A DNA stretch of 64,000 bases from an uncultured Actinomycetota bacterium (GTDB taxonomy: Bacteria > Actinomycetota > Actinomycetes > Propionibacteriales > Nocardioidaceae): assembly GCA_963781695.1 (NCBI GenBank), contig CAWAGE010000001.1, forward strand, positions 79,127 to 143,126, in the 5' to 3' direction. The first letter of the stretch is position 1. The number at the start of each line of letters is the position of its first letter. The translations under genes and the position numbers were made by a program. Shown one piece after another: positions 1,821-52,113 of the stretch. The notes under the pieces were generated by a model that saw nothing but the letters and a program-made list of their open reading frames with translations, was not told the DNA's origin and ran no database searches.

Positions 1821-3029
1821 ATGACCGACCTGTTCGACGCCCCCGAGCCCGACGAGACCGACGATCGCAGTCCCGGAGTGGTCGCCGGCGGCACCGGCGA
1901 CGGCCGGCGAGAGCTGCCGCCGTTCCGCGCCGACCACGTCGGCAGCCTGCTGCGGCCGCCCGACCTGCTCCAGGCACGTGCCCGGCACGCCGCCGGCGAG
2001 ATCGACGCCGACGCGCTGCGGGAGGTCGAGGACCGCTCGGTGGCGGAGGCGGTGGCGCTCCAGCGGGACGCCGGGCTGCAGACCGCGACCGACGGCGAGC
2101 TGCGGCGGACGTCGTGGCACATGGACTTCATCTACCAGCTCGACGGGGTCGACCCGACCGACGAGACGCTGGAGGTGCACTTCCGCAACGCCGAGGGCGA
2201 CCTCGACTTCGAGTCGGCGGCGCCCCGGGTGCACGACCGGGTGGGGCTGAGCCGCACGGTCTTCGGTGACGCGTTCGCCTTCCTCGCCGAGACGGTCCGG
2301 CAGACGGCTCCCGGGCTGACCCCGAAGCTGACGATCCCCTCGCCCAGCATGGTCCACTACCGGGGCGGCCGCGCCGCGATCGACGAGAGCGTCTACCCCG
2401 ACCTGGAGCCGTTCTGGGCCGACCTGTCCGCGGCGTACGCCGAGCAGGTGCGTCGCGTGGCCGACCTGGGCTGCAGGTACCTCCAGCTGGACGACACCAG
2501 CCTGGCCTACCTCAACGACCCGGAGCAGCGCGAGCTGATGGCCGCGCAGGGCGCCGACCCCGAGCACCAGCACGAGCAGTACATCCGCACGATCAACGCC
2601 GCCGTCGCGGACCGGCCCGACGGCCTGCGCGTCACCACGCACCTGTGTCGCGGCAACTACCGCTCGTCGTGGGCGGCGCAGGGCGGCTACGACTTCGTCG
2701 CGGAGGCGCTGTTCTCCGAGCTCGCGGTGGACGGCTTCTTCCTGGAGTACGACGACGAGCGATCCGGGGGCTTCGAGCCGTTGCGGTTCGTGCCGAAGGG
2801 CAAGCAGGTGGTGCTCGGCCTGGTCACCACCAAGCACGGGAGGCTGGAGGACAAGGACACCCTGCGTCGACGGATCGACGAGGCAGCGCAGCACGTCGAC
2901 CTCGACCAGCTGTGCCTGTCCCCGCAGTGCGGCTTCTCCTCGACCGTCGAGGGCAACACGCTGACCTTGGCGGAGGAGCAGGCGAAGCTGCGGCTGGTCG
3001 TCGAGGTGGCCGAGGACGTCTGGGGCTGA
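1821..3029 (+). CDS. short single-barrel MetE-like methyltransferase (cobalamin-independent methionine synthase II family, YxjH-like)
   Basis: RADHVGSLLRP, TDGELRR, Zn ligands THLCRG / LEYD / SPQCGF; RBS GGAGGGAG before ATG 1821; 402 aa. Confidence 0.85.
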   Translation: MTDLFDAPEPDETDDRSPGVVAGGTGDGRRELPPFRADHVGSLLRPPDLLQARARHAAGEIDADALREVEDRSVAEAVALQRDAGLQTATDGELRRTSWHMDFIYQLDGVDPTDETLEVHFRNAEGDLDFESAAPRVHDRVGLSRTVFGDAFAFLAETVRQTAPGLTPKLTIPSPSMVHYRGGRAAIDESVYPDLEPFWADLSAAYAEQVRRVADLGCRYLQLDDTSLAYLNDPEQRELMAAQGADPEHQHEQYIRTINAAVADRPDGLRVTTHLCRGNYRSSWAAQGGYDFVAEALFSELAVDGFFLEYDDERSGGFEPLRFVPKGKQVVLGLVTTKHGRLEDKDTLRRRIDEAAQHVDLDQLCLSPQCGFSSTVEGNTLTLAEEQAKLRLVVEVAEDVWG

Positions 3030-37095: not shown

Positions 37096-38106
37096 TCACT
37101 GCGAGATGCCGGCCAGCTCGGCGGCCGCGAGCAGGTTGCCGGCGGCGAACTCGAGACCACGGACCTGGTCGAAGGAAGCGTCCTCGTGCTCGATGTTGAC
37201 CGCGAGCGAGGGGTTGACCTTCTCCAGGGCAGTGAGGAAGCGGGACCAGAAGTCGACGTCGTGGCCCCGTCCCACCGCCACGAACGACCAGCCGGGGACC
37301 GCCGGCCAGCGGGTCACGGTGTAGTGGCCACCCAGCCCGACCGGGTTCTCCTCGGCGGGGATCCACTCGAACCGGTCGTCCAGCACGCCGTTGACGGCCG
37401 CGGTCTCGTGGATCAGCGTGTCCTTGGCCGCCGCGAAGAACACCAACGGGCCCAGGTCCTCGATGGCGCGCACGGGGTCGATGTGCTGCCAGAACAGGTG
37501 GCTGGGGTCCATCTCCGCACCCACGTGGCTCGCAGCGCCGTCGGAGGTGGTGGCCTCGACCAGGCGCTTGAGCGTGGCGGGGTTGAAGACGAGGTTGTGC
37601 GGGTGCATCTCGATGGCGACGCGGACGTCGCTCTCCGCCGCCAGCTGCTGGATGTCCTTCCAGAACGGTATCGCCACCTCGTTCCACTGGTAGTCCAGCG
37701 TCTCCTTGTAGACCGAGTCCCACGGGATGACCGTCCAGGAGGGCCGGCTGCCGCCGGGGTCGGTCGCCGGCAGCCCCGACATCGTGATGACGGTGTCGAT
37801 GCCGAGCAGGCCGGCCAGCTTGATCGTGCGCTTGAGGTCCTCGGCGTGGGTGATCTCCGGGTCCGGGTGCAGCGGGTTGCCGTTGCAGTTCAAGGCGGTG
37901 AGCTCGATGCCGTGGTCGGCGAAGGTAGCGAGGTAGCGCTCGCGGGCCTCGGCGCTCTCGAGGAGCTCCTCGACCGGGAGGTGGGGGGTGCCGATGAAGC
38001 CACCGGCGTTGATCTCGGCGCTGGTCAGACCGAGGTCGCGAAGGATCTCCAGTGCCTTCTCCAGGGGCTTGTCGTGCAGGCAGGCGGTGTAGGCGCCGAG
38101 CTTCAT
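37096..38106 (-). CDS. sugar phosphate isomerase/epimerase (xylose-isomerase-like TIM barrel)
   Basis: MKLGAYTACL, IEMHP, EMDPSHL, AAKD, NIEHED. Confidence 0.85.
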   Translation of the reverse strand: MKLGAYTACLHDKPLEKALEILRDLGLTSAEINAGGFIGTPHLPVEELLESAEARERYLATFADHGIELTALNCNGNPLHPDPEITHAEDLKRTIKLAGLLGIDTVITMSGLPATDPGGSRPSWTVIPWDSVYKETLDYQWNEVAIPFWKDIQQLAAESDVRVAIEMHPHNLVFNPATLKRLVEATTSDGAASHVGAEMDPSHLFWQHIDPVRAIEDLGPLVFFAAAKDTLIHETAAVNGVLDDRFEWIPAEENPVGLGGHYTVTRWPAVPGWSFVAVGRGHDVDFWSRFLTALEKVNPSLAVNIEHEDASFDQVRGLEFAAGNLLAAAELAGISQ

Positions 38107-38213
38107 GGTGGTCACTCTCTCTGTGGGGGCCGTGGGGGTCGCGGGACTGTGTTGCTGTGGGGCTGCGGTGAACGTGGAACGCGGATGGTGACGAGTGGCG
38201 CCTGACCGGAGGG

Positions 38214-39392
38214 TCAGATGAGGGCGACCGCCCGGCCGCCGTCGAGCGCGCTGCGCGTGATGGCGGCCTGCACCTCCATGTTGTGCAGACCGGCAGCCAG
38301 CGTCGGCAGCGGGGCCAGCTTGCCCAGGCCGGCGACCTGGTCGAGGAAGGCCCGCGCCTGCCAGGCGAAGAGGTCGTTCTGGCCGTGGCCGACCGAGGGG
38401 AAGTCCATCGCAAGGCCCTTCTCGAGGCCGGGGTGCGCAGGGCCGACCAGCACCGTGCGGGTCCCGTTGGTCGCCGCGTCGGGACCGTGGTCGGCGAAGG
38501 TGAACTCGCTGGGCCGGTTGAGGTCGAAGGACGCGGCACCGTCGGCGGCGTAGAGCTCGAAGCCGAGCCCGTTGGGCAGCCCGTGGGAGATGCGGCTGAT
38601 CGAGAAGGTCCCGACGGCGCCGTTGGCGAAGCGGGCCGTGAACGTGGCGATGTCCTCGTTCTCGACCGGCTCGGTCTTGTCACCGACCGCACCGGCGGCG
38701 TGGCCGACCGTCGCACCCAACGGCACCGGGCGCTGGGTCGTGAACGTCTCGAAGACCGCGCCGCTGACGCTGGCGATGGGACCGCACAGGTACTCCCCCA
38801 GGTCGATCACGTGGCTGCCGATGTCGGCCAGCGCCCCGGTGCCCGGCCCGCCGCGGTAGCGCCAGCTGATCGGGTTGCTCGGGTTCTGGGCGTAGTCGCA
38901 CCAGTAGTGACCGTTGAAGTGGCGGGGCGCGCCGATGGCTCCGGCCTCGAGCCGGTCGCGGATGGCGTTGATGGCCGGCGTACGGCGGAACGAGAAGCCG
39001 ACCCCGGACTGGGACTCGGCGGCCTCGGCGGCGGCGACCATGGCGGTGGCGTCCTCGACGGTCGGCGCGAGCGGCTTCTCGCACAGGACGTGCTTGCCGG
39101 CGGCCAGCAGCGCCTCGACGACGGGCCGGTGCAGCTCGTTGGCGATGGCCACGGAGACGACGTCGATGTCGGGCGCGTCCACGATCGCCTGCCACGACGT
39201 CTCGGGGCGCTCGTAGCCGAACCGGGCGGCAGCGTCGGTGGCGAACGGCTCGTGGGCGTCGGCGACCGCGACCAGGCGGATCTCGGGCAGGTCGAGGTCG
39301 TAGAGCTGCGAGGCCACCCGGTACCCGGCGGCGTGGGCGCGACCGACCATGCCTGCGCCGATGACGGCAACGCCCAGTGATGATCTCGTCAT
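38214..39392 (-). CDS. Gfo/Idh/MocA oxidoreductase
   Basis: VIGAGMVG, CEKP, FRRTPA, GALADIGSH. Confidence 0.9.
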   Translation of the reverse strand: MTRSSLGVAVIGAGMVGRAHAAGYRVASQLYDLDLPEIRLVAVADAHEPFATDAAARFGYERPETSWQAIVDAPDIDVVSVAIANELHRPVVEALLAAGKHVLCEKPLAPTVEDATAMVAAAEAAESQSGVGFSFRRTPAINAIRDRLEAGAIGAPRHFNGHYWCDYAQNPSNPISWRYRGGPGTGALADIGSHVIDLGEYLCGPIASVSGAVFETFTTQRPVPLGATVGHAAGAVGDKTEPVENEDIATFTARFANGAVGTFSISRISHGLPNGLGFELYAADGAASFDLNRPSEFTFADHGPDAATNGTRTVLVGPAHPGLEKGLAMDFPSVGHGQNDLFAWQARAFLDQVAGLGKLAPLPTLAAGLHNMEVQAAITRSALDGGRAVALI

Positions 39393-39460
39393 GTCCTTGC
39401 TTCCTGTGAGGGTGGGCCGGGGCTCGACGTCCACGCTGGGGCGACATCGACGACGACGAG

Positions 39461-39559: not shown

Positions 39560-40570
39560 ATGCACCAGCACCGCGGCGCCGGGCACGTGACGCTGACCGA
39601 CGTGGCCAGAGAGGCCGGGGTTTCCCGGGCCTTGGCCTCGATCGTCTTGCGCGAGGCTCCCGGCGCGAGCGAGCAGAGCCGTGCGCGCGTCCTCGCGGTG
39701 GTCGAGCGGCTGGGCTACCGGCCGGACCTCCGAGCCAGGTCGCTGGCCAGCCTGCAGGCCCATGTCGTCGGCGTCCTGTTCGGCCGGGCGGGTCGGTTCC
39801 ATCTCGACCTCATCGACGGCCCGTACGCCGCGGTCGAGGCCCAAGGCTGGGACCTGGTGCTGAGCGCCCTGACGGCCAGCCGCAACGAGGAGCAGGCCCT
39901 CGGGTCGCTGCACGACCTGCGGTTCGACGCCTTGGTCATGCTGGGACCCGAGGTGGCCCGACCGCTGCTCGCCGGTGACGTGCCACTGGTGACGATGGGC
40001 TGGCAGGTCGACCATCCGCAGGTCGACAGCGTCCGCACCGACGACGACCACGGCATGCAGCTCGCGGTCGGCCACCTGACCGGGCTGGGCCACCGCCGCA
40101 TCGCCCATCTCCAGGGAGGCTCGGGTCTGATCGCGATCGCCCGCCGCGACGCGTACCTCCGGGCCATGCGCTCGGCGGGACTGCAGAGGCGGACGCGCGT
40201 CGTCGCATGCGACGGCGAGGACCAGATCGACGGGCAGCGGGCGGCGCGCGCGCTCGTGCAGGCCCGGGGGCTGCCGAGCGCCCTCATCGCGTTCAACGAC
40301 GACATCGCTGCCGCGGCGATGAGCGTGCTCGCCCAGGAGGGCGTCGGTGTCCCGGAGCGGGTCTCGGTCATCGGCGTCGACGACAGCGAGCTGGCGCGGA
40401 CACCCGGGATCGACCTCACCAGCATCCAGCAGCGTCCGCGGGAGATGGCGCGGCTCGCCGTGGAGCGTGCCATCGCGCGCAGCGCCACGCCCGACCTCCC
40501 GGCAGCCGACCTGGTGCTGCGACCGGAGCTCGTCATCCGGTCCACCACCGGACCCGTGGCAGCGCCATGA
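39560..40570 (+). CDS. LacI-family transcriptional regulator
   Basis: TLTDVAREAGVSRA..LGYRP, FNDDIA, VSVIGVDD. Confidence 0.92.
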   Translation: MHQHRGAGHVTLTDVAREAGVSRALASIVLREAPGASEQSRARVLAVVERLGYRPDLRARSLASLQAHVVGVLFGRAGRFHLDLIDGPYAAVEAQGWDLVLSALTASRNEEQALGSLHDLRFDALVMLGPEVARPLLAGDVPLVTMGWQVDHPQVDSVRTDDDHGMQLAVGHLTGLGHRRIAHLQGGSGLIAIARRDAYLRAMRSAGLQRRTRVVACDGEDQIDGQRAARALVQARGLPSALIAFNDDIAAAAMSVLAQEGVGVPERVSVIGVDDSELARTPGIDLTSIQQRPREMARLAVERAIARSATPDLPAADLVLRPELVIRSTTGPVAAP

Positions 40571-40680: not shown

Positions 40681-40689
40681 GCGCAACAG

Positions 40690-40771
40690 TGGCAGGTGAA
40701 GGATTCGAACCTTCGAAGGCTAAGCCGACGGATTTACAGTCCGCTCCCATTGGCCACTCGGGCAACCTGCC
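40690..40771 (-). tRNA. tRNA-Tyr (GTA)
   Basis: GGCAGGTTGCCCGAGTGGCCAATGGGAGCGGACTGTAAATCCG..GGTTCGAATCCTTCACCTGCCA; long variable arm; full CCA not encoded. Confidence 0.97.
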
Positions 40772-41520: not shown

Positions 41521-41823
41521 CTAGGCGAGCCGGCGCAGCCGGCGCACGACGAGCGGCTCGGCGAGAAGCTCGTCGAAGCGCGCCACGAACGTGGCCACGT
41601 GCCGGGTGCGGTCGTGAGCGTCGATGGCCGCCGTGTCGGCCCACCGTTCGTAGATCGAGAGCCGTGCCGGGTCGTCGTGGTCCTCGAGCAGGGTGTACTC
41701 CAGGCAGCCCGCCTCCTCGCGGCTCTGTCTGGTCAGCAGGGTCAGCGCTTCCTTGAGCACTGACTCCTGCCCTGCCCGGGCCACGAAGCTCGGCTGGAGG
41801 TGGACCACCCGGTCGGCGATCAA
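41521..41823 (-). CDS. ABM-family putative quinol monooxygenase
   Basis: SREEAGCLEYTL, IYERW, HDRTRH. Confidence 0.85.
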   Translation of the reverse strand: MIADRVVHLQPSFVARAGQESVLKEALTLLTRQSREEAGCLEYTLLEDHDDPARLSIYERWADTAAIDAHDRTRHVATFVARFDELLAEPLVVRRLRRLA

Positions 41824-43451
41824 CGGGTCCCCCTGCTCGTGGCGATGAACTCGGCGACCCGCCAGGCGTTCGCCATGATCGTCAGCGTCGGGTTGGCCCC
41901 GGTGGCCGTGGGGAACGGGCTGCCGTCCACGACGAAGAGGTTGTCCACCTCGTGCGCCCGGCAGTTGCGGTCGGTCACCGACGTGTCGGGGTCGTCACCC
42001 ATCCGGGCGGTGCCGTGCTGGTGCGAGCAGTTCCCGGTGACCTTCTCCGCGTACACCTTGGTCACGTCGTTGCCGCCGGCCGCCTCCAGGATCTCCCCGC
42101 AGCGGTCGACCAGGAAGCGACCCTGGGCGAGGTCGTTCTCGTGCGGGGTCAGCGTGATCCGGGCAACGGGCAGCCCCCAGGCATCCACGACCTTGTCGTC
42201 GAGGTCCACGCGGTTCTCGTGCTGCGGCATGTCGTGCAGAACCATGGCGACCGCCATCGAGTGGTTGAAGTAGTCGCGATCGACCTGCTTGGCCTCCGCG
42301 CCCCAGGTCGGCTTGCCGGGCAGGCCCCAGTTGATGGGGAGCGGGATGCCGACCCCGGCGGCCGCGATGTGGCCGCCGCTGACGAAGCCTCGCGATGCGT
42401 CGTGCTCGTAGAACTGGAAGCTGCTCGCCGAGACGTAGCCTCCACCCGCCCACGCGTTGATCGGGTCGTCGAAGGTGGCCACCGAGGCGCTGTACTCGTG
42501 GAAGGTCACGTTCCGCCCGACCAGGTCGTTGCTGTTGGCCAACCCGTGGGGGAAACGGGCGGAGGTCGACATCAGCATCAGCCGAGCCGTCTCCACCGCG
42601 CCGCACGCCAGCAGGAACACGTCGGCCTGCTGCTCGACCACGACACCGGCGGCGTCCTCGTAGACTGCGGCCTTGATCTGGCCGCGCTCGTCGAGCACCA
42701 GCTCTCGGACGTAGCAATCGGGGCGCAGCTCGTAGCGGCCCGTAGCCATGGCGTCCGGGATGAACACGTTCAGTGCGCTGGAACGGGTGCCGGTCGGGTC
42801 GCCGTGCTGCTGGGCGAACGCGCTGACCACGGTCGCCGGTCGCCCGTTGAACGGCCGGGAGAGTGCCGCCTGCGGTGTGGGGAAGGAGTTCCACCCGAGC
42901 TTCGCGCACCCGTCGTGGAACTTCTCCGCGTAGCGCGACTGCGGCATCGGCGGGCAGGGGTAGCCCCGGCGGCGCGGGCCCTCGACATGGTTCGCCCCCG
43001 CCTGCCCGGAGACCCCGAAGGCCCACTCGACCGCGTCGTAGTAGGGCTCGAGCTCCGCGTAGGTGATCGGCCAGTCCGCCAGCGTGGTGCCGGGAAGGTC
43101 ACCCGCCACGGTGCGCAGCCGGAAGTCGTTGGGAGTGAACCGGGGCAGCCAGCCCTGCCAGTGCACCGTTCCCCCGCCGACCATCTGAGGCACCGGACAG
43201 AACGGGTCGACCTCGCCGTCGGCGTCGGGCGAGGTCCGCGAGGTGCGCGGGTTCAGGATCGGGTCCGGCCACAGGTTGTACCGGTTGACGTTGGCGAGCT
43301 CGTCGCCGCCGAAGCTCTCCTTCGTTCGCCAGGGGCCCTTCTCCAGCGCGACGACGCGCAGGCCTCGCTCCGTCAGCACCTTGGCGGCGGCGGCGCCGGA
43401 GGCCCCGGCACCGATGATGACCGCGTCGACGCGCTCAGGCTTGGTGGTCAT
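41820..43451 (-). CDS. GMC-family flavoprotein dehydrogenase (keto-sugar/glycoside-3-dehydrogenase type)
   Basis: IIGAGASG, VGGGTVHW, HQHGTARMG, VVDGSPFPT..NPTLTI. Confidence 0.88.
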   Translation of the reverse strand: MTTKPERVDAVIIGAGASGAAAAKVLTERGLRVVALEKGPWRTKESFGGDELANVNRYNLWPDPILNPRTSRTSPDADGEVDPFCPVPQMVGGGTVHWQGWLPRFTPNDFRLRTVAGDLPGTTLADWPITYAELEPYYDAVEWAFGVSGQAGANHVEGPRRRGYPCPPMPQSRYAEKFHDGCAKLGWNSFPTPQAALSRPFNGRPATVVSAFAQQHGDPTGTRSSALNVFIPDAMATGRYELRPDCYVRELVLDERGQIKAAVYEDAAGVVVEQQADVFLLACGAVETARLMLMSTSARFPHGLANSNDLVGRNVTFHEYSASVATFDDPINAWAGGGYVSASSFQFYEHDASRGFVSGGHIAAAGVGIPLPINWGLPGKPTWGAEAKQVDRDYFNHSMAVAMVLHDMPQHENRVDLDDKVVDAWGLPVARITLTPHENDLAQGRFLVDRCGEILEAAGGNDVTKVYAEKVTGNCSHQHGTARMGDDPDTSVTDRNCRAHEVDNLFVVDGSPFPTATGANPTLTIMANAWRVAEFIATSRGTR

Positions 43452-44109
43452 GGTGGTCCTCCTGTCCGCGGTGCGCGCGGCTGTCGGCGAAGTAGTCGAG
43501 GGTGCTGTAGCGGCCGGTGTGGACCTCGGCGAGGTTGGCGGGACCGGGAAAGCCGATCACCTGCCAGCCGATCTGGTCCCTGTTGCCGCCGTAGATCGGG
43601 TCCGCCAGGAACCCCTGGCGAGTGTGGGTGACGAGCAGGTTGAAGAAGTCCATGTCCGCCTCGGCGTTGGTCTGCTGGAGTGCAGGCTCCACCGGTCCGC
43701 CGTACGCGATGGCCGGGGTGTCGCGCCAGGCGCGTTCCGCCTCGGGGCTGCCTGCCCGCTCGATGCGGCGCAGCATCTCGTCCTGCCGAGCGGCGTCGAG
43801 GTCGACGAACTCGACCTGGTGATGCTCGAGACAGAGCCGGTCCAGCTGCGCGATGCCGGCGACGTACTTGGACCGGGCAAGGTCGACCCGCTGCTGCCAC
43901 GCGTCGGCCCGGCGGCCCTGGAGTCGCTCGAAGCCGCTGCCGTCGGGAAGGGCGTAGATGTAGTCGATCCCCGAGAGGTAGCGATCGACGAAGTCGACGG
44001 TCCCGGCCTCCCGGGCCCCGGGGGTGTCGTCCGTCGGGATGATGCGCGCCATCGCCGCCTCGACGGTGGCGCGTTGGTGAGGGTCGAAGAAGGTCGCGTG
44101 AGTGGTCAT
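43435..44109 (-). CDS. gluconate-2-dehydrogenase subunit 3 family protein
   Basis: RIIPTDDTPGAREAG, GFLADPIYGGN, GFPG; no twin-arginine signal. Confidence 0.88.
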   Translation of the reverse strand: MTTHATFFDPHQRATVEAAMARIIPTDDTPGAREAGTVDFVDRYLSGIDYIYALPDGSGFERLQGRRADAWQQRVDLARSKYVAGIAQLDRLCLEHHQVEFVDLDAARQDEMLRRIERAGSPEAERAWRDTPAIAYGGPVEPALQQTNAEADMDFFNLLVTHTRQGFLADPIYGGNRDQIGWQVIGFPGPANLAEVHTGRYSTLDYFADSRAHRGQEDHHDHQA

Positions 44110-44139
44110 GGGTCCTCCGGAGGTGTCGGGAGTGCGGGA

Positions 44140-45060
44140 TCAGGCCACGATGAGCGGCCGGAGCGTTCGGTGGGCGACCGTCAGGCCGGTCTCGATCCGT
44201 TCCTCGGTGCCGCCCCAGACCGGGTCCTCGTGCTCCACGGAGAGCACACCGTCGAACCCGCCCTCGTAGAGCGCGTCGACCACCCTGACCCAGTCGACCT
44301 GGCCCAGCCCGGGAACGCGGTAGCGCCACCAGCCGACGTCCCAGGGGTCCTCACGCCCCACCGCCACGCCCGGCCAGCCGTAGTGGTTGCGCTTCTCCGG
44401 GAAGAGCTCGATGTCCTTCGCCTGGGCGTGCGCGACCTTGTCGACGTACGGCCGGACGGCCGCGACCGGGTCGATGCCCATCCACATCAGGTGGGACGGG
44501 TCGAAGTTGAGGTAGAGCCCGAGATCGAACATCCACTCCCACAGCTCGGGACTGTAGGCGAGGTTGCCCGGGTAGCCGTCGGGGTGCCAACCCTCCATGA
44601 CGCAGTTCTCGATGACGAGCTTGACGCCCTTCTCGCCCGCGTGGTCGACCAGGCGAGGGAACACCTGCTCGGCCATCCGCAGGTTCTCCGCCACCGACTT
44701 GCCCGGGTCTCGGCCCACGAACGTGCCGACGGTGGGGCAGCCGAGCAGGGCCGCGGCGTCCACGAGCGCCATCACGTGGTCGTTGACGGCGCGACGCTCG
44801 GCCTCGTCCGGGTGCAGGTTGTTGTCGTAGAACGCCAACGAGGACAGCGCGAGCCCGTGCTCGTCGAACAGCGACGAGACCCGCTCTGCCTCACCCGCGC
44901 CGAAGCCCTGGGCGTCGAGGTGGGTGGCGGTGAACGGTCGGTCGCCCAGGTCCGGCCAGGCCGCCACCTCCAGTGCCTCGTAGTGGTGCCTGGCCGCCCA
45001 CGTGACGATGTCCTCCAGGGACCGGTCAGGCAGGCAGGCGGTCAGGAATCCGAGCTTCAT
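44140..45060 (-). CDS. sugar phosphate isomerase/epimerase (TIM barrel)
   Basis: MKLGFLTACL, IENC, NFDPSHL, HAQAKD, SVEHED. Confidence 0.85.
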   Translation of the reverse strand: MKLGFLTACLPDRSLEDIVTWAARHHYEALEVAAWPDLGDRPFTATHLDAQGFGAGEAERVSSLFDEHGLALSSLAFYDNNLHPDEAERRAVNDHVMALVDAAALLGCPTVGTFVGRDPGKSVAENLRMAEQVFPRLVDHAGEKGVKLVIENCVMEGWHPDGYPGNLAYSPELWEWMFDLGLYLNFDPSHLMWMGIDPVAAVRPYVDKVAHAQAKDIELFPEKRNHYGWPGVAVGREDPWDVGWWRYRVPGLGQVDWVRVVDALYEGGFDGVLSVEHEDPVWGGTEERIETGLTVAHRTLRPLIVA

Positions 45061-46157
45061 GCGGGTACCTCGATCCAGGAGTCGGTCTTGGCAGAGTCGA
45101 GCACGGCCGCCGTGATGAGCGCGGCGCGGTGTCCGTCGGCGAAGGTCGGCAGCCCGGGGGCGACTCGTCCCGTCACTGCCGCGTAGGTGTCGGCCACGAA
45201 GGCGTTGAAGCAGTCCTGGTAGCCCTGCGGATGTCCGGCCGGAAGGAAGGAGAGGCTTCGCCCCTCCTCCGAGCCGAGGGTCTGCGGACCCCGGGGGACC
45301 ACCCGGTTCTCGGAGACACCACCGATCCACAGCGTGTCGGGCTGCTCCTGGTCGAACACGTAGGAGGACTCGGTGCCGTCGAAGGAGAACCACAGCTTGT
45401 TCTTGCGCCCCAGCGAGACCTGGCTGGCGACCACGGACCCGGTCGCCCCCTGGTCGGTCTCGAAGACCAGCGTTGCCCCGTCCTCCGTTCCCACCGGGCG
45501 GAGGCCGGCCGAGGTGACGCGTTCCGCGTGGGCGTTCGACAGCCGCGCCAGCAACCGGGTGATCCGATGACCGGTGACGAACTCCATCAGGTCGCACCAG
45601 TGCACCCCGATGTCGCCGAACGCCCGGGAGCCGCCACCGCGGCTCGGGTCCAGCCGCCAGTTGGTCTCGCTCCGGCCGGCGAGCCAGTCCTGCAGGTAGG
45701 AACCGTGCAGCAGCCAGAGCCTGCCTGCCTCGCCGGCGGCGATGCGGGAGCGGGCCTCCCGCACGGTCGGGTAGTAGCGGTAGACGAACGGTACGGCGTT
45801 CACGACGCCGGCCTGCCGGGCAGCGGAGACCAGCCGCTCGGCGTCGCCGACCGAGGTGGCGAGCGGCTTCTCGCAGACGACGGACTTGCCGTGCGCGATG
45901 GCCAGCTCGGCGAGCTCGACGTGGGTCGAGTTGGGCGTGCAGATGTGCACGACGTCCACGTCGTCGGAGGAGACCAGCGCCAGGGCCGACTCCGCCCCCG
46001 CCACAGCGCCCAGCCGTCGGGCTGCCTGCGCTGCCTGCTCGGGAGTCGAGTCCGCGACCCGGGTGAGGATGCCGCCGGCCGAGCGGATGGCGTGGGCGTG
46101 CACCCCGCCGATGAAGCCGGCGCCGATGAGGCCGGCACGAACAGGTGTGGTCGACAT
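45057..46157 (-). CDS. Gfo/Idh/MocA oxidoreductase
   Basis: LIGAGFIG, CEKP, HGSYLQDWL, GDIGVHW. Confidence 0.9.
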   Translation of the reverse strand: MSTTPVRAGLIGAGFIGGVHAHAIRSAGGILTRVADSTPEQAAQAARRLGAVAGAESALALVSSDDVDVVHICTPNSTHVELAELAIAHGKSVVCEKPLATSVGDAERLVSAARQAGVVNAVPFVYRYYPTVREARSRIAAGEAGRLWLLHGSYLQDWLAGRSETNWRLDPSRGGGSRAFGDIGVHWCDLMEFVTGHRITRLLARLSNAHAERVTSAGLRPVGTEDGATLVFETDQGATGSVVASQVSLGRKNKLWFSFDGTESSYVFDQEQPDTLWIGGVSENRVVPRGPQTLGSEEGRSLSFLPAGHPQGYQDCFNAFVADTYAAVTGRVAPGLPTFADGHRAALITAAVLDSAKTDSWIEVPA

Positions 46158-46161
46158 CAGG

Positions 46162-47157
46162 TCACTTCTTCCGTGCCAGCGCGACGGCCAGGATGATGAT
46201 CACGCCGCGGACGACCTGCTGCTGCGAGCTGTCCAGCCCCGCCAGGATCAGGCCGTTGTTGATCAGTCCGATCAGCAGCGCGCCGAACATCGTGCCGATG
46301 ACGGCGCCGCTTCCGCCGAAGAGGCTCGTCCCGCCCAGGATGACCGCCGCGATCGCCGAGAGCTCGTCACCGGCCCCCCACTGGAACCGACCCGACTGCA
46401 GGCGTCCGGCGTACAGCATCCCGGCGATCGAGGCGACGGTCGCGGAGATCAGCAGCACCTGGAACTTGATCCGACGCGTCTTGATGCCGGTGAACTCCGC
46501 TGCCGTTCGGTTGCCGCCGGTGGCCAGCACCTGGCGCCCGAAGCGGGTCTTGTTCAGCACCACCGCCCCGAGGGCCACGAAGACCCCGCCCCAGACGATC
46601 AGTCCGGGGATGGGCCCGAAGTCACCGCCACCGAAGGTCAGGTTGAAGGCGTCGTTGAGGATCGGCTGCGGTGCCGAGCTGGTGATCCACTGCGCCACGC
46701 CCGCGGCGATGCCGAGCATGCCCAGCGTGACCAGGAACGAGGGGATTCCCAGCATGCTGACCAGGCCCCCGTTGATGGTTCCGACCACGAGGCCGACCGC
46801 CAGGCCCGCCAGGATGCCGGGGACCAGTCCCCAGCTCGAGATCGCCATCGCGCACGAGACGCTGGCCAGGCCGGCCACCGACCCGACCGACAGGTCGATC
46901 TCCGCGCACGCGATCACATAGGTCATCCCGACGGCGATCACCGTGATCGTGGCGGTCTGGCGCAGGATGTTGAGCAGGTTGTTCGAGCTGAGGAATCCTT
47001 GGTCACCGAGAAGCACCGCGAAGAAGAGGAAGACCACGACGAACGCGATGTAGATGACGTAGCGGTGCCAGTCGACCCGCTTGAGGACGTCCAGCAAGGA
47101 CGTCGACGTGGTGGCGGCACCGGCATCTGCCGGGGCGGTACGGACGCTGTTGCTCAT
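46162..47157 (-). CDS. sugar ABC transporter permease (RbsC-like)
   Basis: IDLSVGS, IPSFLVTLG, TRFGR..ATGGN, AAVILGGTSL. Confidence 0.9.
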   Translation of the reverse strand: MSNSVRTAPADAGAATTSTSLLDVLKRVDWHRYVIYIAFVVVFLFFAVLLGDQGFLSSNNLLNILRQTATITVIAVGMTYVIACAEIDLSVGSVAGLASVSCAMAISSWGLVPGILAGLAVGLVVGTINGGLVSMLGIPSFLVTLGMLGIAAGVAQWITSSAPQPILNDAFNLTFGGGDFGPIPGLIVWGGVFVALGAVVLNKTRFGRQVLATGGNRTAAEFTGIKTRRIKFQVLLISATVASIAGMLYAGRLQSGRFQWGAGDELSAIAAVILGGTSLFGGSGAVIGTMFGALLIGLINNGLILAGLDSSQQQVVRGVIIILAVALARKK

Positions 47158-48662
47158 GAGTGCACTCCTTGCACAGCCAGTTGAAGGGTTTCCTCGTCCG
47201 CGATGTCGTGACGGGGCAGATCTGCTGAGACGGCCCCGTCGCGCAGGACCAGGATGCGGTCGCTGACCGCAAGGAGCTCGGGGTACTCCGACGAGATGAC
47301 GATGATCGCCTTGCCGTCGTCGGCCAGGTCGCGGATCATCTCGAGGATCTCGCTCTTGGTGCCGATGTCGACCCCGGCGGTCGGCTCGTCGAGGATGAGG
47401 ATGTCGGGCTCGGTGCCGAGCCACTTGGCCAGGACGACCTTCTGCTGGTTGCCTCCCGAGAGCAGCCGCACCGGCCGTCCCGGGTTGTCGGCCTTCACGG
47501 CGAACCGCGAGATCAGCCTGTCGGAGAGCTCCCGCGCGGCCGTCGCGCTCAGGAAGGGGCCCTTGCGGGTCCGGTCCAGGAGCGGCAGCAGCAGGTTGTC
47601 GCGCACCGAGTGCTCCAGCACCAGCCCCTGGGCCCGGCGGTCCTCGGGGATGAGGGCCAGACCGTGGGAGATGGCCTGGTGCGGGTTCGAGATCGTCACG
47701 ACCTTCCCGTGCAGCTTCAGCTCGCCGCTGTCGAGCTTGTCGATGCCGAACAGGGCTCGGGCGAGCTCGGTCCTGCCGCTGCCCATCAACCCCGCCAACC
47801 CGACGATCTCGCCAGGTCGCACCGAGAACGACACTCCGTTGACCCGCCTCCCGGCGCGCAGGTCGGTAGCCTCCAGCAGCGGGGCGGCCTCGGTGTCGTG
47901 ACCGCGGTGGCGATAGCTCAGCCCTTCGATCTTCTTGCCGACGATGCCCTCGACGATCTGCTCGGGGGTGACGTCGGCGACGTTCTCGGTGAGCAGCCGT
48001 CTTCCGTCGCGCAGGATGGTGATCCGGTCGGCGATGCGATAGACCTCGTCCATCCGGTGGGAGATGTAGATGATCGAGATCCCGCGGGCCTTGAGCCGCT
48101 CGACGAGGTCGAAGAGCGCCTCGGTCTCATGCTTGGCGAGGCTGGCGGTCGGCTCGTCCATGATCAGGACGCGGGCGTTCTGGCCGAGGGCCTTGGCGAT
48201 CTCGGTCAGCTGCCAGTACGCGGTGCCGAGGTCGGCGACGGTCGCCCTCGGGTCGACCTCGACCTCCATGTCCGCGAAGACCGCGCGTGCCCGGTGCACG
48301 GCCTCGCGGTCACTGATCAGTCCGCCTCTGCCCAGCGGCTCGGCGGTGAGGAAGACGTTCTGGGCGACGGTCAAGGTCGGCACCAGGCTGAACTCCTGGA
48401 ACACCATGCCGATCCCGGCTGCGCGAGCCTCGTGGATCGACCTGATCCGCACCGGCTGACCGCCGACCGAGATGTCCCCGCGGTCCATCGAGTACACCCC
48501 CTGGAGGATCTTCATCAGGGTCGACTTGCCGGCGCCGTTGCCTCCGGCCAGGGCGTGCACCTCCCCGGGCATGACCTCGAAGTCGACGTCGTCGAGGACG
48601 GTGGTGCCGTAGAACGCCTTGTGGATGCCGGTCATCTGCACGGCAGGAGTGGGGTGGGTCAT
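47154..48662 (-). CDS. sugar ABC transporter ATP-binding protein (RbsA-like)
   Basis: GNGAGKS, MDEPT, LSGGNQQK; two ABC domains. Confidence 0.92.
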   Translation of the reverse strand: MTHPTPAVQMTGIHKAFYGTTVLDDVDFEVMPGEVHALAGGNGAGKSTLMKILQGVYSMDRGDISVGGQPVRIRSIHEARAAGIGMVFQEFSLVPTLTVAQNVFLTAEPLGRGGLISDREAVHRARAVFADMEVEVDPRATVADLGTAYWQLTEIAKALGQNARVLIMDEPTASLAKHETEALFDLVERLKARGISIIYISHRMDEVYRIADRITILRDGRRLLTENVADVTPEQIVEGIVGKKIEGLSYRHRGHDTEAAPLLEATDLRAGRRVNGVSFSVRPGEIVGLAGLMGSGRTELARALFGIDKLDSGELKLHGKVVTISNPHQAISHGLALIPEDRRAQGLVLEHSVRDNLLLPLLDRTRKGPFLSATAARELSDRLISRFAVKADNPGRPVRLLSGGNQQKVVLAKWLGTEPDILILDEPTAGVDIGTKSEILEMIRDLADDGKAIIVISSEYPELLAVSDRILVLRDGAVSADLPRHDIADEETLQLAVQGVHS

Positions 48663-48729
48663 CACGAGCTCCTTCGGTCTTCCTGGGTGGCCGGCGGGGA
48701 GTGGGCCCCGCCGGCCACGTCCGGTGGTC

Positions 48730-49884
48730 CTACTTCTTGAAGGAGTCCACGAGGTCCTGTGGCGCGTCTGACTGGTAGACCTGCTTCCAGGCGTCCAGCA
48801 CGTTCGCGTGCTCGACCGGCAGCGCGCTCAGGGCGACGTAGGGCGGCGCCTTCTTGCCGATCAGCGCGCCCGCACCGAGCAGAGCCTCGGTGACGCCCTG
48901 GTCATAGGGGCGCTGGGCGCCGAGCCCGATCACGAGCTCGTCCTTGGCCAGGGCGATCGCCACGTTGGTGCCGAGGTCCTGAGTCGCGATCTTGAGGTCC
49001 GAGCGACCCGAGGCGCGGGCTGCCGCCATCACACCCTCGGCGGGAACGTCCCAGACCGCCCAGACACCGGCCAGGTTGGGGTTCTCGGTGAGCATGGCGT
49101 TGGCGGCACCCTGCGCGTCACCGGCGAAGTCCGGCCCGGCGATGCCCTTCTCGTCGGCGATCTTGATGTCGGGGTAGTCCGACTCGATCGTCTTCTTGAA
49201 TCCCTCGTAGCGCTGCTTGGTCACGAAGAAGTCGGCCTCGTGGTAGATGAGGCCGATCTCGCCCTGGCCGCCGAGGGCCTTGGCCATCAGGTGCGCCGAG
49301 GTCACGCCGTTGCCGTAGTTGTCCGCGGACACGACGGAGACGTAGTCCTTGCCGGCCTCGAGCCCCTGCGGGACGTTGTCCATGAAGACGAGCTTGGTGC
49401 CGGCGTCGGCCACCTTCTTGTACGCCGAGGCGGTCGCGACGGGGTCGGTGGGGATCGACACGATGATGTCCGGCTTCTTGACCATCACGGTCTCGAGGTC
49501 GGAGACCTGCTTGTCGGGCTTGAAGTTCGCATCGGTGACGGCCACGACCTTGATGCCGAGATCGGCGAACTGAGTCCTGAGCCCGTCGACCTGGGCGTTG
49601 GCCCAGTCGTTGCCGCCGTAGTGCATCACGATCGCGGCAGTAGCACCGAGGTCCTTGACCTGGGCGATCTCCTCGTCGGTGAGCTTCGCGGCCTCGGCCG
49701 GCTCGGGCTTCTCACCGTGGGGGCCCTTGCTCAGTACCTGGCCCTGGATCGCGGCGAGGGCCTTGTCGACCTTCTTCGCGACGCCGGGGTCCTGCTCGAC
49801 CGAGGACGTGTTGGCCGAGCTGCACCCGCTCAGGGCCAGCGCGAAGGCCGCGGCCGCGGTCGCGTAGCGGATCCGTGTGTTCAT
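48730..49884 (-). CDS. sugar ABC substrate-binding lipoprotein
   Basis: Lipobox LSGC; RbsB-like KQVSDLE, VSADNYGNG. Confidence 0.9.
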   Translation of the reverse strand: MNTRIRYATAAAAFALALSGCSSANTSSVEQDPGVAKKVDKALAAIQGQVLSKGPHGEKPEPAEAAKLTDEEIAQVKDLGATAAIVMHYGGNDWANAQVDGLRTQFADLGIKVVAVTDANFKPDKQVSDLETVMVKKPDIIVSIPTDPVATASAYKKVADAGTKLVFMDNVPQGLEAGKDYVSVVSADNYGNGVTSAHLMAKALGGQGEIGLIYHEADFFVTKQRYEGFKKTIESDYPDIKIADEKGIAGPDFAGDAQGAANAMLTENPNLAGVWAVWDVPAEGVMAAARASGRSDLKIATQDLGTNVAIALAKDELVIGLGAQRPYDQGVTEALLGAGALIGKKAPPYVALSALPVEHANVLDAWKQVYQSDAPQDLVDSFKK

Positions 49885-50744
49885 CGTGATTCTCCATCGG
49901 TGGTGGGGGCGGTGGTCGCGCCGGTCGTGGTCAGGAGCCGGTCGAGGTAGGTCTTGCTCTGGGCGGCGGCCTCTCGGGGATCGCCGTCGTAGGCGTCGAG
50001 CTCGACGATCAGCCAGCCGTCGTACCCGGTCTCGCGCAGCGCGTCGAGGACGCCTGCGAAGTCGATCTCCCCTGCACCCAGCGGCAGGAACTCCAGGGGC
50101 GACACCCGGGCGTCCTTCAGGTGGACATGACGGACGCGGTCCGGGTAGCGGCGGATCAGCTCGGCGGGGTCGCCGCCGCCGGCCGCGAGGTGCGCGGTGT
50201 CGGGGCAGAAGCCGATCCGGGTGTGGGGCAGCAGCAGGTCGAGCTCCTCGGGGCTCTCGACGATCGTCGTGAGGTGCGGGTGGTAGCACGCCTCGAGGCC
50301 GTGGTCCGACGCGATGTCGGTGACCTGGTCGAGGGCGGCGGCCAGGCGCTCGTAGTCCTCGGCCCGGGTGCCCGACGCTCGCCGGGCGCCCCCACCGACA
50401 ACGAGGTTGGAGGCCCCGAACCGCGCGGCGAGCTCGGCAGCCCGCGTCACCCGGCTGAGCTCCTCCGGGAGGATCTCGTCGTAGATGAAGTTGCCGCCGG
50501 TGTAGACGCCGACGAGCTCGACACCAGCCGACTCCAGCAGCGCGATGAGCTCCTCGGGGCGCTCGGCGAAGTCAGCGACGTTGCCGTCGAACATCTCGAT
50601 GCCCTCGTAGCCGAGGGAGCCGATCTCGGTGATGGCGCGGTCCATCGGACCGTTCACCCGGTACTGCAGGTCCTTGACGCTGGTGACCCCCACGGGGTCA
50701 CCTACGACGCCTCCCCAGGTGATCGTGTGGTGACCGACTCGCAC
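49881..50744 (-). CDS. IolE-like TIM-barrel sugar isomerase/dehydratase
   Basis: GHHTITWG, YHPH, CPDTAH, HVHLKD, IVELD; RBS AGGAGG. Confidence 0.85.
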   Translation of the reverse strand: MRVGHHTITWGGVVGDPVGVTSVKDLQYRVNGPMDRAITEIGSLGYEGIEMFDGNVADFAERPEELIALLESAGVELVGVYTGGNFIYDEILPEELSRVTRAAELAARFGASNLVVGGGARRASGTRAEDYERLAAALDQVTDIASDHGLEACYHPHLTTIVESPEELDLLLPHTRIGFCPDTAHLAAGGGDPAELIRRYPDRVRHVHLKDARVSPLEFLPLGAGEIDFAGVLDALRETGYDGWLIVELDAYDGDPREAAAQSKTYLDRLLTTTGATTAPTTDGESR

Positions 50745-50785
50745 GGTTGCCTCCTGTCTTATGTCCCTTCAGTGGGATTGGGCTC

Positions 50786-50827
50786 ATCTTAAGCACGTGT
50801 TGTGCAGAAGTCAACACCCACTAAACT
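50786..50827. promoter_or_regulatory. overlapping divergent promoters with a putative ROK operator
   Basis: Minus strand TTGACT (50809-50814), N17, TAAGAT (50786-50791); plus strand TAAACT at 50822; dyad CTTAAGCAC-N5-GTGCAGAAG (50788-50810). Confidence 0.65.
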
Positions 50828-50835
50828 TATGTACG

Positions 50836-52113
50836 ATGCGCCTCGACGAAAGGCAGGCAGATCCGATGGAACGAGCGCACGCGGTCTCCGTCCTGGCAGG
50901 CGAGAGCATCGAGTCCGTGGTGTCCGTGCTCGACGCCGTGCGCGTCTCCGGCGCGACGACCCGTCCCGAGATCGCACGGTTGACCGGACTCGGACGCAAC
51001 GTCGTCACGGACCGGGCGGGCCAGCTGATCGCCGCCGGTCTGCTCATCGAGGGTGCGCTGGGCCGCTCGACCGGCGGCCGGGCCCCGCGCGAGCTGCGCT
51101 TCAACGCCGCCGCCGGGGTGATCCTGGTGGCCGAGCTCGGGGCCACCGGCATCGAGGTAGCCGCTGCCGACCTGGCCGGCAGCATCTCGATGGCGCGGGG
51201 CGAGGCCGCGGACGTCACCCGGGGTCCGACTCACATCCTGGGGCGCGTGGCCGAGCTGTTCGACGAGCTCGTCGCCTCCCTCCCCGGGGACGCGCAGGTG
51301 TGGGGGGTCGGCGTGGGACTTCCCGGACCGGTCGAGTTCGACACCGGCACGCCGGTCTCTCCCCCCATCATGCCGGGCTGGGACGGCTTCGACGTCAGGT
51401 CGTTCTTCGCCACCCGCTACGGCGCACCTGCCTGGGTGGACAACGACGTGAACGTGATGGCTCTCGGAGAGCTCCGCGGCGGCCTCGCCACGGGGCACCG
51501 GGACGTCGTGCTCGTCAAGGTCGGCACCGGGATCGGGGCCGGACTCGTCTCCAGGGGCCAGCTGCACCGCGGCGCACAGGGTTGCGCCGGGGACATCGGC
51601 CACATGGCCGTGGGCGAGAGCACCGCGCAGTGCCGCTGTGGCCAGCTGGGGTGCCTCGAGGCGCTGGCCGGCGGGTATGCGCTGGGCCGCGACGGCCTCG
51701 ACCTGGCGCGCTCCGGGGAGAGTCCAGCCCTGGCCAAGGAGCTTGCCGCAGGACACGACATCACCGCGCAGTCGGTGGTCGACGCCGCGCTGGGTGGCGA
51801 CCCCGCCGCTCGCAGACTGGTCACAGAGTCTGCTCGGCTGCTCGGGGAGGCCCTGGCCCGGGTCGTGAACTTCTTCAACCCGTCGCTGGTCCTCATCGGT
51901 GGCAGGGTGGCCTCGGCCGGAGACCTCTACCTGAGGCAGGTGCGGCTCGCGGTCCTCGACCGATCGCTGCCGCTGGCCACTCGGTCCCTGGAGATTCTCC
52001 AGTCCCCGCTGGCCGACCGCGCCGGGCTCCGCGGCGCCGCGTTCATGGTGGTCGACGAGCTGCTCTCCTCGGTTGGCCTGTCCGGGCCTCCTGCGCAGGT
52101 GCAGGCCCGGTAG
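50836..52113 (+). CDS. ROK-family transcriptional regulator (alternative start 50866)
   Basis: N-terminal HTH, STGGRAP, DNDVN, GDIGH, CRCGQLGCLE. Confidence 0.9.
   Translation: MRLDERQADPMERAHAVSVLAGESIESVVSVLDAVRVSGATTRPEIARLTGLGRNVVTDRAGQLIAAGLLIEGALGRSTGGRAPRELRFNAAAGVILVAELGATGIEVAAADLAGSISMARGEAADVTRGPTHILGRVAELFDELVASLPGDAQVWGVGVGLPGPVEFDTGTPVSPPIMPGWDGFDVRSFFATRYGAPAWVDNDVNVMALGELRGGLATGHRDVVLVKVGTGIGAGLVSRGQLHRGAQGCAGDIGHMAVGESTAQCRCGQLGCLEALAGGYALGRDGLDLARSGESPALAKELAAGHDITAQSVVDAALGGDPAARRLVTESARLLGEALARVVNFFNPSLVLIGGRVASAGDLYLRQVRLAVLDRSLPLATRSLEILQSPLADRAGLRGAAFMVVDELLSSVGLSGPPAQVQAR

Follow-up and report, generated by a model that had tools for sequence, protein, structure and literature searches.

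An actinobacterial operon predicted to degrade levoglucosan has a cytoplasmic two-subunit flavoprotein in place of the LgdA dehydrogenase

We analysed a 64,000-nucleotide stretch of DNA, here called the window, from an uncultured actinobacterium of the family Nocardioidaceae (contig CAWAGE010000001.1, positions 79,127 to 143,126), and within it an operon that we predict to serve the catabolism of the anhydro-sugar levoglucosan. The window has a base composition of ~70% GC, and genes were called by choosing frames according to third-position GC and then listing open reading frames (ORFs). The operon consists of nine head-to-tail genes on the minus strand, running from 50744 to 41521, with a divergent gene for a ROK regulator beside its TIM1 end (Table 1). 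In particular, it encodes two xylose-isomerase-like TIM barrels (TIM1 and TIM2), the solute-binding protein (SBP), ATPase and permease of an ATP-binding cassette (ABC) transporter, a Gfo/Idh/MocA oxidoreductase (Gfo), a GMC-family large subunit (GMC) with a protein of the Gluconate_2-dh3 family (SUB3), and a small ABM-fold protein (ABM). Four gene pairs (TIM1/SBP, ATPase/permease, Gfo/TIM2 and GMC/ABM) overlap by 4 bp and one (SUB3/GMC) by 17 bp; translational coupling in the operon is real, and the arrangement cannot be put down to chance, since the set recurs in more than 60 loci of other genomes (below, GMC-type loci or modules). A first-pass annotation of this DNA had already described a coupled operon and named all of these families, which the Pfam matches and overlaps bear out, as Pfam also does its remark that the operon contains neither a glycoside hydrolase nor a sugar kinase. 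No operon gene reaches an NCBIfam equivalog cut-off.

The SBP begins with a lipoprotein signal sequence (MNTRIRYATAAAAFALALSGC), and the ATPase scores 465–515 bits against the AraG, XylG and RbsA models, every one of these scores being below its cut-off. A single permease gene together with a fused ATPase is the pattern of monosaccharide (CUT2) importers. The ROK protein matches the Pfam ROK domain over residues 90–396 (7.7e-54), carries an N-terminal extension of ~89 residues ahead of that domain, and has NagC and Mlc as its best full-length regulator models; its orthologues lie beside the module in 13 of 24 GMC-type loci of Actinobacteria and in 11 of 20 of Proteobacteria. We found no inverted repeat in the ROK/TIM1 intergenic region (seed 6) and no terminator 3' of the ABM gene.

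Table 1. Features of the window and of loci compared with it (numbers after gene names are % identity to the window protein).
Feature	Position	Strand	Details
ROK regulator	50866..52113	+	alternative starts 50836, 50761; likeliest 50866 or 50836
Divergent intergenic region ROK/TIM1	50745..50865		AT-richer than flanks, read directly
TIM1	49881..50744	-	287 aa; PF01261 6.5e-39; IolE-like branch, xylose-isomerase-like TIM barrel
SBP	48730..49884	-	384 aa; Peripla_BP_4 4.1e-42; lipoprotein signal LSGC
ATPase	47154..48665	-	503 aa; ABC_tran in two stretches; fused two-domain, CUT2 type
Permease	46162..47157	-	331 aa; BPD_transp_2, PF02653 1e-36
Gfo/Idh/MocA oxidoreductase	45057..46157	-	366 aa; PF01408 + PF22725
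TIM2	44140..45060	-	306 aa; xylose-isomerase-like, PF01261 9.3e-31
SUB3 (Gluconate_2-dh3 family)	43435..44109	-	224 aa; PF13618 1.2e-31
GMC large subunit	41820..43451	-	543 aa; GMC_oxred_N + GMC_oxred_C; GxGxxG at residue 14
ABM-fold protein	41521..41823	-	100 aa; TTG start; PF03992 1e-14
TIM barrel of 37-40 kb unit	37096-38115		339 aa; nearest solved relative SCO6571
LGDH-like Gfo of 37-40 kb unit	38214-39434		406 aa; NF052479 247 bits, below cut-off
LacI of 37-40 kb unit	39560-40570		divergent
tRNA-Tyr	40689-40771		between 37-40 kb unit and operon
Inositol-type cluster, same genome	C7:813787-820582
Inositol-type cluster, same genome	C1:155763-163650		~12 kb past window end
LGDH-type locus L086			LacI / SBP 75, ATPase 74, permease 82, Gfo 66, TIM1 64, LGDH, ABM 41
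LGDH-type locus L088			ROK 60 / TIM2 82, TIM1 71, SBP 75, LGDH, ATPase 73, permease 78, Gfo 66, ABM 40
LGDH-type locus L087			ROK 49 / TIM1 55, SBP 60, LGDH, ATPase 53, permease 65, Gfo 56, TIM2 66, ABM 25
LGDH-type loci L090, L091			TIM1 54, SBP 64-69, LGDH, ATPase 50, permease 61-66; divergent ROK detected in L091 only
ABM homologue, L086	11232-11510
ABM homologue, L088	14881-15141
ABM homologue, L087	15577-15876
Plasmid copy of module, L081	5006-14864		ROK, TIM1, SBP, ATPase, permease, SUB3, GMC, Gfo
Gfo Oxo remnant, L057	11684-11881		66 aa; 76% identity
TIM1 frame, L018	~2045-2926		apparently frameshifted

Known levoglucosan clusters contain one family each of SBP, ATPase and permease, a ROK regulator, a TIM barrel of ~275 residues (LgdB1) and a second Gfo protein (LgdC) (PMC10066097). 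As bona fide LgdA, the levoglucosan dehydrogenase (LGDH), we accepted proteins over the 650-bit cut-off of the NCBIfam equivalog NF052479. Of 401 genomes from the class to which the window belongs, three encode such a protein, as do two of 401 alphaproteobacterial genomes. (These five LGDHs score 702–750 bits, and one shows ~96% identity to the P. phenanthrenivorans enzyme of known crystal structure, 6A3F.) In every one of the five genomes the genes that share an operon with lgdA are orthologues of the window genes, with identities to the window of 60–75% for the SBP, 50–74% for the ATPase and 61–82% for the permease; the window thus has the dedicated importer of the levoglucosan clusters. Sixty-eight residues are invariant in 45 SBPs of GMC-type loci, and four of the five LGDH-type SBPs keep 66–68 of them, the SBP of the divergent low-GC locus L087 keeping 59; the changes in LGDH-type SBPs are conservative. 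LGDH-type TIM1 proteins keep 61–65 of the 65 family-invariant residues, and the permeases of L086 and L088 keep 102–103 of 103. We predict that the SBP of the window binds levoglucosan. Because orthologues of its genes surround a bona fide lgdA in five of five genomes, the window operon appears to be a levoglucosan operon minus lgdA plus GMC/SUB3.

This orthology supports the non-hydrolytic route of C3 oxidation and β-elimination put forward in the first-pass annotation, which counted the Lgd pathway among its models. The window enzymes are not orthologues of two other models named there, E. coli YcjQRS and Caulobacter LacABC, and the substrate, which it had left open as a glycoside or anhydro-sugar, is almost certainly levoglucosan and not an aglycone-bearing glycoside. 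Among the hosts of the LGDH-type operons is a low-GC (46%) actinobacterium with a 1.4-Mb genome (G375) that carries a complete operon of this type (L087). Its 1.3-Mb congener G240 has a 52%-identical GMC+SUB3 paralogue (L089) beside a different ABC transporter and without LgdB1; we rejected this match as a member of the module, as a paralogue in another transporter context.

TIM1 is predicted to be the orthologue of LgdB1, the 3-keto-levoglucosan β-eliminase. The length of its family (272–287 residues) is consistent with that of the LgdB1 cluster (PMC10066097), and its N-terminus, MR(V/L)G(H/Y)H, resembles the MKFGY of Bacillus smithii LgdB1 (primer, PMC11116085). The nearest solved relatives of TIM1 are, at the same time, IolE proteins (1e-22 by profile), and one may ask whether the operon serves a cyclitol, such that GMC/SUB3 would oxidise an inositol isomer or O-methyl-inositol to an inosose, with dehydration by TIM1 and entry of the product into an iol pathway encoded elsewhere. 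Indeed, the genome has two inositol-type clusters, each with an IolD over cut-off and an IolE-like TIM barrel, and on the IolE equivalog TIGR04379 (cut-off 290 bits) TIM1 scores 132 bits against 152–156 for the proteins of these clusters. IolD is also present in 22 of 25 module-bearing genomes, and among NCBIfam models the SBP matches a rhizopine SBP best (46 bits). However, TIM1 is 26–30% identical to the IolE-like proteins of its own genome and 54–71% identical to the LgdB1 proteins beside LGDH, a 3-keto-glucose reductase and a glucal hydratase have orthologues linked to the module, and IolD is missing from three module-bearing genomes, two of the window's closest relatives among them; since IolD is common in soil bacteria, its presence in the other 22 carries little weight. 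Comparison with the iol clusters of the same genome, the counts for IolD and, most of all, the orthology to LGDH operons led us to reject an inositol or cyclitol pathway, which we regard as very improbable; nor do these data fit enzymes acting on inositol or aldonates only, the outcome that the first-pass annotation had named as fatal to its reading. Ideas of a lichen polyol or 1,5-anhydroglucitol as substrate, which had come from lichen-associated hosts of the module, found no support once the link to LGDH appeared.

The Gfo protein of the operon falls in a clade of levoglucosan, scyllo-inositol and L-glucose dehydrogenases. It is not itself an LGDH (180 bits on NF052479), and its counterparts in L086, L088 and L087 are the second, non-LGDH Gfo proteins of those operons. 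Its residues E96 and H186 correspond to E95 and H185 proposed for LgdC (PMC10066097), and we predict that it is the LgdC orthologue, an NADH-dependent 3-keto-D-glucose reductase (NAD, nicotinamide adenine dinucleotide). TIM2 has orthologues in two of the five LGDH operons (L088 and L087) as well as in 14 of the 24 GMC-type loci of Actinobacteria; none was found in genome G232. Its nearest solved relative is SCO6571, and a Foldseek search with its AlphaFold2 model, which is of moderate confidence (predicted local distance difference test score, pLDDT, 78), returned SCO6571, Art22 and the hydratase AtHYD (8ro4) at the top (TM 0.67–0.73), a result that does not separate a hydratase from an isomerase or epimerase. 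We regard TIM2 as a candidate for the hydratase of 2-hydroxy-3-keto-D-glucal, the part played by LgdB2 or LgdB3 in the known pathway.

No protein of the window's genome passes as an LGDH; the best NF052479 score, 265 bits, belongs to a Gfo protein in one of the two iol clusters. The same holds for all 25 genomes with a GMC module (0/25 over cut-off; best 383 bits), and none of the five LGDH-type genomes has a GMC orthologue, the best paralogue being 36–38% identical. LgdA and GMC are therefore mutually exclusive among the 30 genomes compared. We concatenated the SBP, TIM1 and permease sequences for a maximum-likelihood tree. It tracks taxonomy and places the LGDH-type loci nested among those of GMC type; its well-supported branches cannot be reconciled with fewer than three switches between LgdA and GMC.

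We also considered whether a Gfo protein might still perform the first oxidation, either a bidirectional LgdC or the LGDH-like Gfo encoded at 38214-39434, with the flavoenzyme as an auxiliary that oxidises glucose or 3-keto-glucose or removes the glucal. An enzyme that both oxidises and reduces has been proposed, albeit LgdA and not LgdC (Arya et al., as cited in PMC10066097), an LgdC-type Gfo is retained in 20 of the 24 GMC-type loci of Actinobacteria, and the nearby Gfo scores 247 bits on the LGDH model. Yet loci of Aureimonas (L020, L033, L035 and L037) and Mesorhizobium sp. (L039) are devoid of any Gfo and retain TIM1, the transporter and GMC/SUB3; the 37-40 kb unit is missing at that position in all relatives; and an auxiliary enzyme would be expected to accompany LgdA at least sometimes, whereas the two co-occur in none of the 30 genomes. 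We consider a Gfo-catalysed first step distinctly unlikely.

The 37-40 kb unit itself was described correctly in the first-pass annotation, which counted it with the operon in one locus; the unit is syntenic with the operon in no relative. It is separated from the operon by the tRNA-Tyr gene and by a convergent gene at ~40.8-41.35 kb, YajQ-like by eye, and its Gfo is 35–37% identical to true LGDH. The unit is not demonstrably part of the predicted system, and we do not count it in.

What takes the place of LgdA, in our reading, is the flavoenzyme. The nearest solved relatives of GMC are the large subunits of fructose dehydrogenase and of glucose dehydrogenase dependent on flavin adenine dinucleotide (FAD-GDH) (~1e-48, ~30% identity), and we assign it to their branch, with SUB3 as its predicted small subunit. 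Two-subunit GMC enzymes include glycoside 3-dehydrogenases, for example the Rhizobium enzyme GlycDH (PMC10628242); GMC is 26.6% identical to it and keeps its His479/Asn520 pair. (Note that the Agrobacterium and Rhizobium reference sequences were taken from the supporting information of that paper as optical-character-recognition text with small errors, adequate for BLAST.) The Cys cluster of GlycDH aligns with a shorter, Cys-free stretch in GMC, at the position of the 3Fe-4S ligands in direct-electron-transfer relatives (PMC6719666). The PF13618 domain of SUB3 begins at residue 10, leaving no room for a signal peptide; the N-terminus lacks an RR motif and thus a twin-arginine translocation (Tat) signal, as does that of the Mesorhizobium orthologue. 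GMC, for its part, opens directly with the FAD motif, so that neither subunit has a signal peptide. The operon contains no cytochrome gene and no further ORF. Because there is no Tat signal and GMC starts at its FAD motif, the flavoenzyme is cytoplasmic; it lacks the 3Fe-4S cysteines and depends on an electron acceptor that the operon does not encode.

GMC evolves far more slowly than its operon partners. Its orthologues are 75–96% identical across at least six phyla, with the next paralogues at 38% or less, and between the window and Mesorhizobium it is 78% identical, compared with 63% for SUB3, 62% for the SBP, 60% for the permease, 50% for the ATPase and 49% for TIM1. Recent transfer alone does not explain this, because the tree of the partner genes tracks taxonomy. 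The SUB3 gene adjoins the GMC gene in 59 loci. We predict that GMC/SUB3 is an FAD-dependent levoglucosan 3-dehydrogenase that replaces LgdA. The GMC superfamily should be capable of such a reaction, because fungal pyranose oxidase, a GMC enzyme, has reportedly been used for the synthesis of 3-keto-levoglucosan, to judge by the title of a 2017 article by Kitaoka that is cited in PMC12149734.

The conservation of GMC across phyla suggests a tightly defined substrate, and one might suppose that this is not levoglucosan but a relative of it on which LgdA performs badly, such as mannosan or galactosan, which are the remaining 1,6-anhydro-hexoses in smoke, 1,5-anhydro-D-glucitol or a small alkyl glucoside, for which GMC/SUB3 would be specific while the rest of the scaffold stayed the same. 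Only the dehydrogenase differs between the two operon types, and it is the first enzyme that usually sets specificity; moreover, the glycoside 3-dehydrogenases of the superfamily are broad (PMC10628242), and a subset of alphaproteobacterial loci has SBPs just 42–45% identical to that of the window. The SBPs of both operon types are nevertheless intermixed on the tree and have nearly all of their invariant residues in common, as do the LgdB1 proteins, which must accept the oxidised substrate. The 3-keto products of mannosan and galactosan would, furthermore, differ in configuration, and the glucose-forming LgdC and AtGfoOxo orthologues are not obviously suited to them. A different substrate is thus unlikely, although of the alternatives considered here it is the one we take most seriously.

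Several points weigh against a levoglucosan operon with an exchanged first enzyme. The function that we assign to GMC rests on its association with known genes and on the logic of replacement, and at the identities given above homology to GlycDH and to the fructose and glucose dehydrogenases does not give the regiochemistry. A flavin-linked first step breaks redox neutrality, so that LgdC must draw its NADH from elsewhere, and the acceptor for the flavoenzyme lies outside the operon. An LGDH-like Gfo does occur 2.4 kb past the end of the operon, the LGDH-type comparison covers five loci, and the orthology to the assayed B. smithii LgdB1 and LgdC is indirect, by way of the Pseudarthrobacter-type cluster and the description in PMC10066097. 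Weighing these points, we put at roughly 0.7 the probability that the window holds a levoglucosan operon in which LgdA has undergone non-orthologous replacement by a cytoplasmic two-subunit flavoprotein, GMC+SUB3. Both the pathway and the majority of its genes were already known; new are the first enzyme and the existence, among the two-subunit GMC dehydrogenases, of a branch that is cytoplasmic and lacks Fe-S clusters, and it is the replacement of LgdA by the GMC pair that the first-pass annotation missed.

Homologues of GMC number in the thousands, and among the top 120 identity to it does not fall below 79%. From a scan of one genome per species, which gave 144 relatives, we kept the best 80 (75–96% identical); they represent Actinomycetota, Alphaproteobacteria, Chloroflexota, Thermomicrobiota, Gemmatimonadota and Verrucomicrobiota, and among the Proteobacteria many hosts live in association with lichens or plants. 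Isolates that carry the module and have no lgdA include Phycicoccus sp. Root101, Modestobacter marinus, Microlunatus spumicola, Aureimonas spp. and Mesorhizobium jarvisii. Synteny and ORF clustering define a core common to these phyla of TIM1, SBP, ATPase, permease, SUB3 and GMC, frequently with a divergent ROK gene, to which Gfo and TIM2 are added in most Actinobacteria; in minimal core modules GMC is the sole oxidoreductase. Clustering of all ORFs of the 80 loci brought out no conserved neighbour families beyond those of the operon. In eight loci the GMC gene is followed by an orthologue (59–64%) of Gfo Oxo, a 3-keto-glucose reductase, in Lichenibacterium by an orthologue (68%) of AtHYD, a 2-hydroxy-3-keto-glucal hydratase, and several further loci contain AtHYD-like barrels (30–33%). 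Because such orthologues come after GMC in other versions of the module, the module is likely to feed the intermediates of a route of oxidation, elimination, hydration and reduction.

Individual loci offer further observations. On the 237-kb plasmid MesoLj131b4 of Mesorhizobium sp. 131-2-5 (L081) every gene of the module bears only a generic RefSeq name, and small DUF2285, DUF6499 and DUF736 genes lie directly after it. Genes of these types are common on conjugative elements, and the plasmid context would fit horizontal spread. In Mesorhizobium jarvisii (L057) a remnant of Gfo Oxo after the GMC gene is a sign of decay, and the disrupted TIM1 frame in a metagenome-assembled genome (L018) may reflect a pseudogene or an assembly error. 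Four Chloroflexota loci (L025, L036, L040 and L047) have a gene for a CE7 acetyl-xylan esterase directly after GMC (Pfam 3e-107), two loci of Geodermatophilaceae (L023 and L038) have an ORF that looks by eye like an alpha/beta hydrolase, and L023, L038 and the Lichenihabitans locus L044 encode a protein of 360–456 residues without a Pfam match; neither the CE7 esterase nor the extra protein of Geodermatophilaceae gave a functional lead.

The ABM-fold gene that closes the window operon also closes three of three actinobacterial LGDH-type operons, its products there being 25–41% identical to that of the window; within GMC-type loci it is confined to the closest relatives. Because its homologues end the LGDH operons L086, L088 and L087, ABM would seem to go with the pathway in Actinobacteria and not with the flavoenzyme. 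It is not mentioned among the genes of Lgd clusters (PMC10066097) and may be an unrecognised accessory of the pathway; a tautomerase- or mutarotase-like role is pure speculation.

We propose the following course. The lipoprotein SBP and the CUT2 transporter would, by orthology, import levoglucosan (1,6-anhydro-beta-D-glucopyranose), and GMC/SUB3 would oxidise its C3 hydroxyl with FAD to give 3-keto-levoglucosan, both the substrate and the regiochemistry being our proposal. Electrons would pass to an acceptor encoded elsewhere, presumably O2 or a quinone, making the step effectively irreversible. TIM1 (LgdB1) would then open the 1,6-anhydro ring by β-elimination to 2-hydroxy-3-keto-D-glucal, TIM2 would probably add water to form 3-keto-D-glucose, and Gfo (LgdC) would reduce this with NADH to D-glucose, the roles of TIM1 and Gfo following from orthology. 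The ROK protein would repress the operon until substrate or product, its putative ligand, appears. Such a course offers a plausible reason for the exchange: the NAD-linked reaction of LgdA proceeds more readily in reverse and depends on LgdC to pull it forward (PMC7676230), so that a flavin-linked, irreversible step might be worth its cost of one NADH.

Levoglucosan is widely used as a tracer of biomass burning. Pyrolysis of cellulose yields it as the principal sugar, and it settles over the surface of the earth (PMC10066097). LgdA (EC 1.1.1.425) is its only known bacterial entry enzyme (PMC11116085, PMC10066097), bacterial oxidation of levoglucosan being known only through this NAD-dependent protein (PMC7676230, PMC10066097, PMC11116085). 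A literature search, outside which most subscription journals fell, returned no paper tying levoglucosan to a bacterial GMC or two-subunit flavoprotein dehydrogenase. The exchange of LgdA for a flavoenzyme, which recurs in soil bacteria of several phyla, has not previously been described. On balance, we think it probable that GMC/SUB3 is the first FAD-dependent levoglucosan 3-dehydrogenase; that it is a cytoplasmic offshoot of periplasmic complexes, without their Tat signal, Fe-S cluster and cytochrome; that it has repeatedly displaced LgdA, providing an irreversible first step that favours the scavenging of trace levoglucosan; and that it has spread, partly on plasmids, through six phyla while remaining at least 75% identical. 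If so, surveys that use lgdA as a marker undercount levoglucosan degraders among soil and lichen-associated bacteria, and an irreversible O2- or quinone-linked enzyme would bypass the unfavourable LgdA equilibrium (PMC7676230) and be useful for the conversion of pyrolysis sugars and possibly for levoglucosan biosensors of the FAD-GDH type. Our analysis also supplies a testable function for a large, highly conserved family annotated as 'GMC family oxidoreductase' and 'gluconate 2-dehydrogenase subunit 3 family protein', and shows that the class of two-subunit GMC enzymes has soluble cytoplasmic members.

Of the systems known to date, the window operon most resembles the Lgd pathway, lgdA-lgdB1-(lgdB2/B3)-lgdC with an ABC importer, of Bacillus smithii S-2701M (PMC7676230), which is also represented in Paenarthrobacter LG01 and LG02 (PMC10066097) and by the LGDH of Pseudarthrobacter phenanthrenivorans Sphe3 (PDB 6A3F). 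The importer, the LgdB1-type barrel, the LgdC-type Gfo, the accessory barrel, ABM and ROK are orthologous and syntenic, and the predicted chemistry (oxidation, β-elimination, hydration and reduction to glucose) is the same. Unlike these systems, the window has no LgdA, an NAD-dependent enzyme of the Gfo/Idh/MocA fold, and has instead GMC and a Gluconate_2-dh3 subunit, so that the route would no longer be internally redox-balanced. Of the marks of a myo-inositol IolG/IolE system, the operon shows neither the IolE equivalog nor dependence on IolD.

The four-step logic is also that of the Agrobacterium tumefaciens glucoside operon, which comprises GlycDH with a Tat small subunit, AtOGE, AtHYD (PDB 8RO4) and Gfo Oxo (PMC10628242); there, too, a two-subunit GMC enzyme oxidises C3, one xylose-isomerase-like TIM barrel acts as lyase and another as hydratase, and a Gfo protein performs the reduction. 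We rejected orthology to this locus, however, since beyond the distance of GMC from GlycDH the window proteins are only remote relatives (TIM1/AtOGE, 32% over 117 residues; TIM2/AtHYD, 28% over 86 residues; Gfo/Gfo Oxo, 28%), true orthologues of Gfo Oxo and AtHYD being found only in the modules of other lineages (L074, L081 and others). GlycDH has a Tat-annotated small subunit and a Cys cluster, whereas the window enzyme is cytoplasmic and without such a cluster, and the broad glycoside specificity of the Agrobacterium system differs from the monosaccharide-type importer and single small substrate predicted here. The direct-electron-transfer complexes, namely Gluconobacter fructose dehydrogenase (PDB 7W2J), Burkholderia FAD-GDH (PDB 6A2U; PMC6719666) and Caulobacter LacABC (PMC9007349), share with the window the same GMC branch and a PF13618 small subunit; unlike them, the window has no Tat signal, no 3Fe-4S cysteine motif and no cytochrome c gene, and its enzyme is cytoplasmic instead of periplasmic or membrane-bound. 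Fungal pyranose oxidase, finally, is likewise a GMC flavoenzyme and is said, again from a paper title, to yield C3-oxidised levoglucosan, but it belongs to another GMC branch, of which only the C-terminal domain aligns with the window GMC (1e-10 to 1e-13), and it is a single-subunit, extracellular enzyme without a physiological link to levoglucosan catabolism.

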